Shown piece by piece: positions 20,804 through 25,152 of a stretch of DNA of 50,486 nt; position 1 is the stretch's first letter, and the number at the start of each line of letters is the position of its first letter. The position numbers and the translations under genes are program-made. The DNA lies in the NCBI GenBank assembly GCA_016840095.1, contig JAEOSZ010000127.1, forward strand, positions 1 to 50,486. The letters are read 5' to 3'. Below the pieces are notes generated by a model that made no database searches, was not told where the DNA came from, and saw nothing but the letters and a program-made list of their open reading frames with translations. Source of the stretch: Candidatus Heimdallarchaeota archaeon (GTDB lineage Archaea > Asgardarchaeota > Heimdallarchaeia > Heimdallarchaeales > Heimdallarchaeaceae).

Positions 20804-22144
20804 ATGTCAAATTATGTTGAACGTGTTTATGAACATGTAGTTGAGAAGAATCCATCTCAACCAGAGTTCCATCAAGCAGTACAGGAAGTTCTCGACAGTT
20901 TAAAACCTGTCTTTGAGAAAGAACCTAAATTCGAGCAACACAAGATTCTCGAAAGAATAACAGAACCTGAAAGAATAATTATATTTAGAGTTCCGTGGGT
21001 TGATGATAACGGTGAGATACAGGTCAATAGAGGTATGAGAGTTCAATTCAATTCTGCAATTGGTCCATACAAAGGTGGTCTTCGTTTCCATCCAAGTGTT
21101 AATCTAGGTATCATTAAATTCCTTGGTTTTGAACAGATATTCAAAAACTCACTCACAGGTCTTTCCATGGGTGGAGGTAAAGGTGGTTCTGATTTCGATC
21201 CAAAGGGTAAATCAGATAACGAAGTTATGCATTTCTGTCAATCTTTTATGACTGAATTATACAGACATATTGATGGAAGAGTAGATGTTCCAGCAGGTGA
21301 TATTGGTGTTGGTGCTCGAGAAATTGGCTATCTCTATGGACAATGGAAGAAGATTACTCAACGATTTGTACCTGTCTTAACTGGTAAATCTCTAGAATAT
21401 GGTGGTTCCTTAATCAGACCAGAAGCTACTGGTTATGGTGCAGTTTATTTTGCCCATGAAATGCTTAAAACAAGAAATGATGATCTCAAGGATAAGACTT
21501 GTTTGGTCTCTGGATCAGGAAATGTTGCACAATATACAACAGAAAAAATCTTAGATCTAGGAGGTAAAGTAGTCACTCTTTCCGATTCAAGTGGATATAT
21601 TCATGATCCAGATGGTGTAACCAGAGAAAAACTAGCTTATGTTCTTGAGCTAAAGAATGTTCGCAGAGGACGAATTAAAGAATATGCTGAAGAATTTGGT
21701 GTTGAATACAAAGCTGGTGGTCAACCTTGGGAAATTGCTTGTGATGTAGCATTTCCAAGTGCTACACAAAACGAAATCAATGGTGAAGAAGCTAAAATGC
21801 TTGTTGACAATGGATGTTTTGTTGTATCTGAAGGTGCAAACATGCCATCTACAATCGAAGCAATTGATGTATTCTTAGAGAACAAAGTCTTATTTGGTCC
21901 TGGTAAAGCAGCAAATGCTGGAGGAGTTGCAACATCTGGTCTTGAAATGGCACAGAATTTTGGTTTCTCATCTTGGAGTAGAGAAACAGTGGATCAACGC
22001 TTAAATGGAATCATGACCAATATTCACAAAATGGCTTATGAAGCTTCTAAAGAATATGGTGAACCTGGAAACTATGTTTTAGGTGCAAATATTGCTGGGT
22101 TCAAGAAAGTAGCTAATGCTATGATCTTACATGGACACTGGTAA
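20804..22144 (+). CDS. gdhA: Glutamate dehydrogenase, NADP-specific GdhA type
   Basis: [71 protein letters not shown]. Confidence 0.97.
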
Positions 22145-22156
22145 AAAAAATTACAA

Positions 22157-22177
22157 TTCGATGGATTTTCCATCGAA
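22157..22177. terminator. Hairpin between convergent genes (putative bidirectional terminator)
   Basis: TTCGATGGA-TTT-TCCATCGAA, a perfect 9-bp stem with an A-tract on the left and a T-tract on the right. Confidence 0.65.
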
Positions 22178-22185
22178 GATTTTTC

Positions 22186-25152
22186 TTATTTTTCTGGTTT
22201 TAATATCATTCCTTCTCGTTTTTGAGCATCTATTCTCACTGTTAATGGATTTTTTAATTCAACATGCCTAACATATTCCAAATCTGTTTTAGCTTTCTGT
22301 TTGTTTATCCAATCCCAATCTATTTTGTGTTGTTCAGATTTATGCTTGATATGAAAATACCCTATATTTGCTGTTACTATATTATGAAAGAAATGTGTCC
22401 CTTGAGAAAAATCAATTGTAAAATCTTCTAGCGAAGTTTCAATTATTGTTTTTGCAGCATTGATATTGCTCCATTTAGCTGGAATACCTAGGAATCTATC
22501 AGCGGTCCCCCATCTTCCAAAACCAATTAATAAGTAAGGTCGTTTCAGTTTATTTAATTGAGCGTTAATTGAATCAATTTCATCTACTATTTCGAGAGTT
22601 TTAGTTTTATCAAATTTCTCTGCTTTAACGAATACAATATCTTTGATATCTTTTCTCAGTAGATTCCCTGAAACATGAGATGAAAAAGCTAAAATCTGAT
22701 TAACATCTACAACCTCAAAATCTTCAATTAAAAGTGCTTCTTGTTGTAGAAATGGTCGAATTTGTAGGATATCAAATTGATCCTTCTCATTCTTTGATAC
22801 CCCAAAACTACCAGCAAACTCAATCTCTATCGATGACCCCAAAGCTCTTTCTCCAATGGTCAAAATCCTTGTTAACAATCTAGCTAGAGGTGTTGTTTCA
22901 AATTTCAATTGCTGACTGAAAGTTATTACTGGTGATCCTTCACCAAAAAAACCATCCTCTAAATTCTCTGAATCAAAGTTATACCTATCTGCTATTTTGG
23001 TGAGTGTTCCCTCTTTTATCGCATCTCCAAGATCGAGTCTTTTGATATATGGATCGTCATCGAGAATATCGAAATCAGTCTTTGTTAGGTCAACCCCATA
23101 ATAGTGTTTCTGACTTTGCTTTAACAGCATATCAGGTGTAGAATAATAGTTTAATTTAGGATATTTTGGACAGAATCGTACTGAAGATTCACCTTCAACA
23201 ATTGTTTTACCTAGACCTAAAGCTAGATGTGCTATTCTATCTTCAGGTTTCATATAATCACCAAAGGGATAATAGTTATAAGATGCTGCAGTTCCTGAGA
23301 AATCTGGATAGTGATGATTGTTTCTTTCTTTACCTACCACCTTCTGAATCACGACAGCCATTTTTGATTCTTCTACGGTTTGTTGTATAGTTTCTGCATA
23401 TGATTTCGCAAGTTTCAGAAACTGAGATGCATAGACTAGTTTAATAGCTGTGCATAACTGTTCGAGTCTTTCTTTCTTATTTTCATGATTATTTGGAATC
23501 ATATATGTATCGAATATTCCAGCAAATGGTTGATACGCTGAATCCTCAAGGAGACTGGATGATCGAATCGCTAATGGTCCATCGAGGTCCTTTAGAAGAA
23601 AATCCAAATCATTTCGTAAACTTTTAGAGAGTTTTGCAGCATCAAACTTTCTCTTTATTTCTTTATCAGAGACATCAGATAGAGCAAACTCATAGAGATT
23701 ATTCTCTTCCATAAATTTATCATATTCATCTGTACCAATTACAATGGTCTTTGGAATTTCTATATTCACGTTCGGGAACTCATCTTTTATCATGAAAGAG
23801 TTAAGAAGGAACATTAGAAATGCAATTCCTCTCCCTTTACCACCTAGTGAACCAGGTCGTAATCTGAGATATAGTGTTTCAGGATGATAGTTGTCACGCG
23901 AGAAATCATTAATTATACCTCGTGTTTTTTCTATAACAATATCATCAATAGTTCTAATTAAGAAGTCTTTAAGCTCAGTTTGTGTAAATTCAGAAACTTT
24001 TCTTGGTTTTAACTTCTCTGCAATATCAAACTCTCCTCTTGCATGTAACCAATTGGAAAAATGGTCACTCTTTCCATGATAGACTAGTGATTCTAAAGGA
24101 ACTTCAGAAAGCTGTTTGTAGAAAGTGATAACATCAGTAGCATGACCGTAAATATTCCCATCTTGGTCTTTAAATATGAAGTCTCCGAAACCCACAAATT
24201 CTAGAAGCCACTTCTTAAGATCCCATATCATCCCATGAGATCGTTTGTGTATGAAGAAACAGTCCATTTCTTCTGCTTGTTCTCTGTAGAAGTCTTTACT
24301 TGATTGTAAGACTATAGGTAGGTTAGGATGTTCTTGTTTGACTTGTTCAGCAAAAAGAAATCCAGCATTTTTATTTAGAACTCCATCTAAAGGAAATTCT
24401 ACATCCGAGATTACTCCCATTACAAAATCTTTGTAGCGTTCATAATATGCAACGGCTTCTTCATATGTTTCAGCAAGAAGGATTTTAGGTCTTATTCGCA
24501 TTTTAAGAAGATCCTGAAAATCATTTGTACCTTCTGAGATTAACCGATGAGTTTGTCTCATTATTTCTCCATAAACTTCTGGGAGCATTAAAGAGTAAAA
24601 TCTAATTGAATCATCAACAAAAATGAAAACTCTTACATTGCCTTTATTAGTGTCATAATCTGCATTAAATTTGTCCTCAAGATGTTTAATAATCGCTATG
24701 AAAATCTTGCTGTCGCCATTCCAAACAAAAACTCTGTCTATTCCTTTTCGTTTACTATATTCTGGAAGATATTTGATTTCAACGACACTGTTCAACAACA
24801 ATATTACTGGAATATCTTGTATATCCTTAACATTAGCTCCAAAAGAAAATGCATCCATATCCCCTAATCTTCTCATAGTAATAACTAAATCAAACTCTTT
24901 TTCTTCTAGCATATCTAGTGCTTCATTAGCAGAAGAAACTCTAGTTATTCTTGGTAGAGTTCTAAGATTTAGGTTATGAAACTCTTCATATATTTGATCA
25001 GATAATCTTCCATCTTCTTCTAGCATGAAGCTATCATAGATACTAGAAACAAGAAGAACATTTCTCATCCTTCTATTCATAAGCTCATGAAAGATTTTGT
25101 ATTTTGGTTTATATTCAAGAAAGAATCTAACTGCATCTTGATCTGTAGTCAA
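22186..25152 (-). CDS. Receiver-like domains fused to a PEP-synthase/PPDK-type ATP-grasp domain and putative His-swivel domain
   Basis: REC-like FVDDS...VISDVEFP; ATP-grasp GSLGGKGRG, AIRSSSLLEDS, FAG, MAVVIQ, IEIEFA, ILQIRP; C-terminal GRWG...SQGTHFFHN; no room for a pyruvate-binding TIM barrel. Confidence 0.85.
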   Translation of the reverse strand: MTTDQDAVRFFLEYKPKYKIFHELMNRRMRNVLLVSSIYDSFMLEEDGRLSDQIYEEFHNLNLRTLPRITRVSSANEALDMLEEKEFDLVITMRRLGDMDAFSFGANVKDIQDIPVILLLNSVVEIKYLPEYSKRKGIDRVFVWNGDSKIFIAIIKHLEDKFNADYDTNKGNVRVFIFVDDSIRFYSLMLPEVYGEIMRQTHRLISEGTNDFQDLLKMRIRPKILLAETYEEAVAYYERYKDFVMGVISDVEFPLDGVLNKNAGFLFAEQVKQEHPNLPIVLQSSKDFYREQAEEMDCFFIHKRSHGMIWDLKKWLLEFVGFGDFIFKDQDGNIYGHATDVITFYKQLSEVPLESLVYHGKSDHFSNWLHARGEFDIAEKLKPRKVSEFTQTELKDFLIRTIDDIVIEKTRGIINDFSRDNYHPETLYLRLRPGSLGGKGRGIAFLMFLLNSFMIKDEFPNVNIEIPKTIVIGTDEYDKFMEENNLYEFALSDVSDKEIKRKFDAAKLSKSLRNDLDFLLKDLDGPLAIRSSSLLEDSAYQPFAGIFDTYMIPNNHENKKERLEQLCTAIKLVYASQFLKLAKSYAETIQQTVEESKMAVVIQKVVGKERNNHHYPDFSGTAASYNYYPFGDYMKPEDRIAHLALGLGKTIVEGESSVRFCPKYPKLNYYSTPDMLLKQSQKHYYGVDLTKTDFDILDDDPYIKRLDLGDAIKEGTLTKIADRYNFDSENLEDGFFGEGSPVITFSQQLKFETTPLARLLTRILTIGERALGSSIEIEFAGSFGVSKNEKDQFDILQIRPFLQQEALLIEDFEVVDVNQILAFSSHVSGNLLRKDIKDIVFVKAEKFDKTKTLEIVDEIDSINAQLNKLKRPYLLIGFGRWGTADRFLGIPAKWSNINAAKTIIETSLEDFTIDFSQGTHFFHNIVTANIGYFHIKHKSEQHKIDWDWINKQKAKTDLEYVRHVELKNPLTVRIDAQKREGMILKPEK

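Follow-up and report, generated by a model that had tools for sequence, protein, structure and literature searches.

What might a protein that joins receiver domains to a dikinase-like module do beside a glutamate dehydrogenase (GDH) gene in an Asgard archaeon? The question is raised by contig JAEOSZ010000127.1 of the Candidatus Heimdallarchaeota assembly GCA_016840095.1, whose positions 1 to 50,486 make up the stretch of DNA analyzed here (the window). The contig (C143; G+C 33%) belongs to a 3.44-Mb assembly that is 89% complete, and close matches of its proteins to those of Heimdallarchaeota metagenome-assembled genomes (91-95% identity) place it in the Heimdallarchaeia. On it, the E. coli-type GDH gene, gdhA, converges on a gene for a 988-amino-acid (aa) protein for which we use the working name RP (22186-25152, minus strand). 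Since relatives of RP adjoin GDH genes in many phyla, RP probably controls the neighboring enzyme. More specifically, we assign a probability of about 0.5 to RP being a receiver-gated, histidine-autophosphorylating, dikinase-derived regulator that acts on GDH post-translationally. GDH is where carbon and nitrogen metabolism meet, and to our knowledge its post-translational switching has not been worked out for most anaerobes and archaea, organisms without the GlnD/GlnE/NtrBC circuitry of enterobacteria. Work in the 1980s reportedly found that the GDH of Bacteroides fragilis is reversibly inactivated in vivo by ammonia, with no mechanism given. The RP family, in which receivers are combined with a putative phospho-histidine dikinase engine and which is tied to GDH in more than 15 phyla, is a concrete candidate for such a switch. 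The locus is made up of the following features.

20804..22144, plus strand: gdhA, E. coli-type hexameric NADP-specific glutamate dehydrogenase, 446 aa (NCBIfam PRK09414; Pfam ELFV_dehydrog_N and ELFV_dehydrog)
22145..22185, no strand: convergent spacer of 41 nt holding a 9-bp hairpin, TTCGATGGA-TTT-TCCATCGAA, bordered by an A run and T runs (read from the sequence)
22186..25152, minus strand: RP gene, stop codon included, for the 988-aa receiver/dikinase-like protein (open reading frame, Pfam, AlphaFold2 model)

Both reading frames are as the initial annotation of this DNA described them. The gdhA product scores 757 bits against PRK09414 (cut-off 536) and 216 bits against the usual archaeal GDH class (cut-off 750), and by sequence is an E. 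coli-type NADP enzyme, not one of the usual archaeal class. RP is present in one copy in the host genome; its start codon is TTG, with GGAAGTGA ahead of it. The hairpin in the 41-nt spacer looks like a bidirectional terminator.

To determine how widely this arrangement occurs, we performed a pattern scan on one genome per species, which returned at least 597 relatives, and counted linkage at the best 80 loci; these span Asgard archaea, Thermoplasmatota, and more than 15 bacterial phyla. A GDH homolog was found by tblastn with the window's GDH inside the 10-kb flanks of 52 of the 80 loci. At the 54 loci with usable flanks, i.e., at least 2 kb on both sides, a gdhA-class gene lay no more than 10 kb from RP in 37 and was adjacent (within 600 nt) in 28. 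The resulting 69% compares with ~1% expected by chance, as estimated for a one-to-three-copy gene in genomes of 2-5 Mb. Taking all 36 adjacent cases together, gdhA was upstream on the same strand in 17, convergent in seven, downstream on the same strand in five, divergent in two, and part of multi-copy arrays in five. When the 963 open reading frames of the flanks were clustered, GDH (49 loci) was the only conserved neighbor, followed by a gltD-like gene at 10 loci, and no histidine kinase gene was found as a conserved neighbor among them. In several genomes (L011, L030, L037, L057, L059) the two genes alternate in arrays, e.g., GDH-RP-GDH-RP-GDH, or three RPs and three GDHs within 15 kb. In the Ignavibacteriota, the paralog clades of RP track those of GDH, with two RP clades adjoining two different gdhA clades (unrooted trees). 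The genetic coupling of RP to GDH is very likely real, and the linkage that the initial annotation had put forward proved to be strong across archaea and bacteria.

The domain anatomy of RP, from the N- to the C-terminus, is as follows (all on the minus strand).

24637..25071: REC1, a pseudo-receiver, aa 28-172 (receiver fold, Z 12.6-12.7 over aa 28-166)
24874-24876: Met93 of REC1, at the phospho-acceptor position
24193..24636: REC2, a receiver with an intact pocket (D180-D181, D250, S284, K303), aa 173-320 (receiver fold, Z 13-15.6; conservation)
24403-24405: Asp250 codon of REC2
23857..24192: small beta-hairpin and helical module, aa 321-432, with invariant Trp368, weakly DUF5752-like (Pfam, conservation, model)
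22741..23856: PPDK_N-type ATP-grasp nucleotide-binding domain, aa 433-804, with K439, R530, E776/E778, Q797, and R799 (Pfam, fold)
22189..22740: divergent phospho-histidine swivel-like domain, aa 805-988, with R880, D885, E905, S916, and the candidate phospho-carrier His920 (fold, hand alignment)
22513-22515: R880 codon
22393-22395: His920 codon

The family comprises 4521 clusters at 50% identity (E ≤ 1e-3), of which 88 full-length representatives, 32-56% identical to RP, formed the alignment for an AlphaFold2 model of the full-length protein (pLDDT 91, pTM 0.86). Aligned to solved structures, aa 28-166 and aa 173-322 of the model are both receiver folds; Pfam gives only a sub-threshold REC match (aa 64-119). 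REC1 is a pseudo-receiver, having the receiver fold with Met (105/180 members) or Thr (32/180) at the acceptor position. With the whole N-terminal module, the top Foldseek match was PleD (E 2.6e-7), which likewise has one true and one pseudo-receiver ahead of an enzymatic output; in RP, however, the order is reversed, with the pseudo-receiver first, and the output is a dikinase module rather than GGDEF. The helical module matches DUF5752 at E 0.05 (1e-5 to 3e-5 in relatives), and an ESM Atlas look-up with it gave scores of at most 0.83, which serve as leads only. PPDK_N (PF01326) covers aa 435-804 at E 5e-33 (profile positions 3-312 of 328). No Pfam match was obtained for PF00391 (PEP-utilizers; PEP, phosphoenolpyruvate), for PF02896 (the PEP/pyruvate barrel), or for the GHKL kinase domains HisKA/DHp and HATPase_c.

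The closest structural matches take in the nucleotide-binding and phospho-histidine domains in one superposition each: aa 416-987 with the PEP synthase (PEPS) of N. meningitidis (2ols; Z 26.0, 365 residues), aa 426-986 with rifampin phosphotransferase (RPH; 5hv3; Z 25.8, 375 residues), and aa 426-987 with residues 7-511 of the pyruvate, phosphate dikinase (PPDK) of C. symbiosum (1dik; Z 18.6, 351 residues). Over both domains together, RPH (5hv1, 5hv3) and PEPS/PPDK (2ols, 1dik) match at Z 18-26 and 350-375 residues; the ATP-grasp domain matches the ATP-binding domains of RPH and PEPS at Z 21-26, and the ATP-grasp catalytic residues of all three enzymes are conserved in RP. In contrast to them, RP has neither rifampin domain nor PEP/pyruvate barrel, carries receivers at its N-terminus instead, and lacks the PF00391 signature (GGxTSH). 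Its ATP-grasp domain passes at aa 804 straight into the swivel-like domain, with no RPH-style acceptor-binding domain between, and the protein ends at aa 988 directly behind the latter, so that the TIM barrel for PEP/pyruvate is absent. Since a canonical PPDK/PEPS of 911 aa with the swivel motif GGLTSH is encoded in the same genome (G000:C152:45018-45269, L095), RP is not the organism's PEP-forming enzyme. The five-domain layout, the motifs, and the absence of the barrel, from which the initial annotation had argued that RP is no PEP synthase, were thus borne out.

Folded alone, the 184 residues of the C-terminal domain gave a pLDDT of 93.6, and in an exhaustive structural scan (VIA-align) phospho-histidine swivel domains ranked at the top (Z 5.5-7.2), among them the phosphoryl-carrier domain of PPDK at Z 7.2, the PEP-utilizer domain of the pyruvate kinase from B. 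stearothermophilus at Z 7.0, and, both at Z 6.9, the RPH His domain and residues 375-512 of maize PPDK. Foldseek with the isolated domain returned nothing at E < 1e-3. A hand alignment with the host's PPDK is collinear through a hairpin, ILV...T-PED (against LLI...G-TAD), AA-K-I-L-T (against AAKTIIET), G-[ST]-H at the N-terminus of a helix, and IV...IG, and it places His920 on the catalytic His of PPDK. RP departs from the canonical swivel by a helix inserted at aa 849-868, a lengthened loop ahead of the His, and a beta-hairpin extension at the C-terminus. Because the top fold ranks are consistent and the domain directly follows the ATP-grasp, we take it to be swivel-like; structure search on the model places it with the phospho-histidine swivel domains. 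The N-terminal domain of Enzyme I of the phosphotransferase system is also among the fold matches (Z 5.4-5.8). The analogy here is functional only: the swivel phospho-histidine of Enzyme I can donate to a protein, HPr, whereas RP lacks both a PEP-binding domain and an HPr-like partner.

Conservation was counted in 180 members, i.e., the 88 representatives, 91 proteins of at least 900 aa from the genome loci, and RP itself. K439, R530, Q797, R880, E905, and W368 occur in all 180, and H920, E778, and S916 in 179; N924 is kept in 170 and D885 in 167, while position 799 is Arg in 159 and Lys in the other 21. In REC2, K303 is present in 172 members, D250 in 165, and D181 in 157; position 284 is Ser in 161 and Thr in 13, and position 180, the other half of the acidic pair, is conserved as Asp or Glu. 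The His and Asp singled out by the initial annotation are therefore both conserved. The sole member without H920 also lacks E778, D885, and S916, which suggests that the metal site of the ATP-grasp domain and the His site serve one reaction. By comparison, 15 members (~8%) lack D250, and usually D181 as well, yet keep all ATP-grasp and His-site residues; thus, the function of the His is independent of the receiver Asp. In view of the catalytic residues and of the joint fit of both domains to PEPS, PPDK, and RPH, ATP-dependent phosphorylation of His920 is the most likely chemistry, and we consider it probable on the combined grounds of sequence and model.

The closest tested relative of RP is VadK (Rv1127c) of M. 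tuberculosis, a barrel-less, PPDK-derived histidine kinase that autophosphorylates on its swivel His with ATP and Mg, co-precipitates with methylcitrate-cycle enzymes whose genes lie close to its own, and tunes their flux with no effect on transcription (PMC13400623). Like RP, VadK by its published description combines an ATP-grasp with a phospho-His domain and lacks the barrel, and its gene lies near those of the metabolic enzymes that it binds and regulates post-translationally, as the RP gene lies beside that of GDH (PMC13400623). The two differ in that RP has two receiver domains and VadK none, in that the presumed partner of RP is GDH rather than the methylcitrate-cycle enzymes, and in that the His domain of VadK overlays solved PPDK structures (PMC13400623), whereas the swivel of RP escapes recognition at the sequence level and has additional invariant residues as well as insertions. 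The architecture of RP itself has already been listed: Galperin et al. (2018; PMC5847659) include "REC + pyruvate phosphate dikinase" among response regulators, as a domain combination only, with neither a function nor the swivel His, and the words "glutamate dehydrogenase" occur nowhere in that text (0 occurrences), so that the GDH linkage is not mentioned. Database names of relatives are generic only. Together with VadK, RP would widen a newly recognized theme, in which PEP-utilizing dikinases that have lost the barrel are turned into regulators of metabolic enzymes.

In the mechanism that we propose, a conventional histidine kinase would phosphorylate Asp250 of REC2, upon which the tandem of pseudo-receiver and receiver would change state, much like that of PleD. 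The state of the receivers would gate the ATP-grasp domain and with it the transfer of phosphate from ATP to His920, at the helix N-terminus of the swivel-like domain, as in PEPS, PPDK, RPH, and VadK. Phosphorylated RP would then act on the GDH encoded next to it, either by binding that depends on the phosphorylation state, as proposed for VadK, or by passing the phosphate to GDH. The outcome would be that ammonium assimilation or glutamate catabolism is switched by a nitrogen, carbon, or energy signal. Direct action on GDH is favored because of the analogy to VadK and because RP paralogs pair with GDH paralogs, and a GDH-modifying kinase, as suggested in the initial annotation, is a live hypothesis.

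A serious alternative is that RP is a receiver-regulated small-molecule dikinase or phosphotransferase, which would phosphorylate a metabolite of the glutamate/2-oxoglutarate node or produce a signaling compound, its link to GDH being one of pathway and not of protein contact. The nearest structures do act on small molecules (RPH, PEPS, PPDK, HpeI), the invariant residues around His920 (R880, D885, E905, S916, N924) exceed the needs of a bare carrier, and the second most common neighbor is the gltD-like gene. However, for binding a substrate RP has no domain like the PEP barrel or the rifampin domain of RPH, and since several RP paralogs within one genome each lie beside their own GDH paralog and the clades track each other, specificity at the protein level fits better than a shared metabolite. 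We therefore regard this alternative as possible but unlikely.

The second alternative, the internal His-to-Asp relay put forward in the initial annotation, would need no outside kinase: the ATP-grasp domain would load His920, the swivel would hand the phosphate to the protein's own Asp250, and phosphorylated REC2 would act on GDH, the whole forming a self-contained phosphorelay of non-GHKL type. If true, His-to-Asp signaling would have been invented a second time and independently, in a form present in Asgard archaea and many bacterial phyla. Transfer from a phospho-His to an Asp is standard receiver chemistry, and every characterized dikinase has a third, acceptor-holding module, for which RP offers only the receivers and the small helical module. 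Of the 180 members, 165 have a complete REC2 pocket, as do all 29 of the aligned members that adjoin GDH, and the missing histidine kinase gene among the conserved neighbors also fits. Against it stand the 15 members that have lost D250 and retain the entire His set, and the rigid-body fit to PPDK (1dik) and RPH, which covers the ATP-grasp and swivel domains only. Moreover, several HATPase_c kinases and other receivers, which could feed REC2, are encoded in every RP genome checked (the window's and three of Thermoplasmatota), none of which lacked a histidine kinase. As originally stated, the relay is thus disfavored, and we consider it doubtful. Finally, although relatives bear names such as "pyruvate, phosphate dikinase" or "PEP/pyruvate-binding domain-containing protein," it is highly improbable that RP is an ordinary PEP synthase or PPDK, given the lack of the barrel, PEPS, PPDK, and RPH NCBIfam scores far under the cut-offs (e.g., 36 vs. 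740 bits for TIGR01418), and the separate canonical enzyme, or that its adjacency to gdhA is accidental, given the observed and expected frequencies above.

Several observations weigh against the receiver-gated regulator of GDH that we prefer. At about 30% of the fully flanked loci, gdhA is absent within 10 kb; in favor of the regulator, all five genomes tested whose RP locus lacks gdhA encode it elsewhere (63-70% identity). RP is missing from 31 of 56 Asgard genomes that have gdhA. Its assignment to the swivel domains, as made in the initial annotation, holds by fold, domain order, and hand alignment, i.e., by middling Z scores (~7) and inspection, and fails by profile methods: hhalign of the domain against 26 Asgard PPDK/PEPS swivel segments gave a probability of 0.3%, and a profile search against the PDB yielded nothing relevant. 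RP has no recognizable domain for a protein or small-molecule acceptor, and neither a functional study of the family nor a paper on its linkage to GDH was found in the literature. No GDH position satisfied a strict signature, i.e., conservation in at least 90% of 29 RP-linked GDHs and at most 20% of 20 unlinked Asgard GDHs. Looser differences lie at positions 119, 142-146, 178-188, 411, and 442 (P0002), which are largely fixed in the 29 RP-linked GDHs (e.g., Met142 in 29/29, Gln146 in 28/29) but vary among 18 GDHs of Asgard genomes that lack RP; these positions could form a contact surface, or they may reflect phylogeny only.

On the RP side, the positions that determine specificity between paralog clades are concentrated in REC1, and for this reason the N-terminal half of the protein was chosen for complex prediction. 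The run with aa 1-432 of RP and GDH, using paired alignments of 29 rows and made without controls, gave a score of 0.00, which weighs on neither side of the question of binding.

Among 151 Asgard genomes, RP was found in 27 and the E. coli-type gdhA in 56. The RP carriers are nearly all members of the window's class, in which 25 of 27 genomes (the window's own left out) have the gene. Of the 27 RP genomes, 25 also have gdhA, the two exceptions being 85-88% complete, and the two genes are adjacent in 17, convergently in 11 (the window's family) and divergently in six (a second family). RP thus seems to occur only where the E. coli-type GDH exists, while GDH often occurs without RP, as would be expected of an accessory regulator. 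In unrooted trees, the Asgard RPs form one well-supported clade among bacterial sequences, as do their GDHs, and the Thermoplasmatota RPs form another; transfer of RP from bacteria is plausible. The initial annotation had further proposed that RP was acquired together with a bacterial-type gdhA and that paired phylogenies would bear on this. The gdhA is indeed E. coli-type; co-acquisition was not demonstrated, since gdhA occurs in 56 and RP in 27 of the 151 genomes, and unrooted trees do not decide on co-transfer. For Asgard biology, RP would represent a bacterial-style metabolic control module fixed throughout the Heimdallarchaeia.

Upstream of RP, the window holds two further genes, neither of which is a conserved neighbor of RP in other phyla.

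25257-26648, minus strand: major facilitator superfamily (MFS) transporter gene, on the same strand as RP and 104 nt upstream of it
26866-27525, plus strand: gene for a 219-aa protein with several helix-turn-helix motifs, divergent from the MFS gene

Elsewhere in the family, the gltD-like neighbor (10/80 loci, e.g., L036:20562-22010) encodes a protein of the glutamate synthase small-subunit type with Fer4_20 and Pyr_redox_2 domains. B. thetaiotaomicron BT1971, considered as a homolog of RP, proved to be a catalase. Many Bacteroidales relatives are ~1550 aa long, and these and other long forms (P0132, P0176, L018:9044-12916) carry 160-580 extra N-terminal residues without a Pfam match, which may be further sensor or receiver-like modules. 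No fusion to GDH was seen, as the long relatives (1130-1640 aa) contain no GDH domain and bear unassigned N-terminal regions or duplicated dikinase modules. At five loci (L019, L038, L039, L061, L076), two RP genes stand in tandem, for proteins of 1150-1200 aa and ~990 aa, with overlapping or abutting stop and start codons, an arrangement suggesting that RPs form hetero-oligomers in Bacteroidota, Chlorobiota, and Myxococcota.

Some of the GDH/RP arrays hold a second GDH class of roughly 420 aa. In the Ignavibacteriota and Calditrichota, a gdhA-class GDH, RP, and a GDH of ~415 aa recur in this order, suggesting that one RP is flanked there by two GDH classes. A deeply diverged RP paralog of 1060 aa (L059:328-3510, minus strand; L057:351-3533; L060:14377-17568) keeps the ATP-grasp and His-site residues, has no REC match and no D250, and ends in an NTP_transf_2 (Pol-beta-type nucleotidyltransferase) domain; in L057 and L059 its gene is divergent from that of a second-class GDH of ~428 aa. 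The GlnE adenylyltransferase exerts covalent on/off control over an ammonium-assimilating enzyme, an analogy to RP that is functional only, as RP itself has no nucleotidyltransferase domain and only this distant paralog does. The presence of such a domain beside GDH hints at covalent modification of the enzyme.

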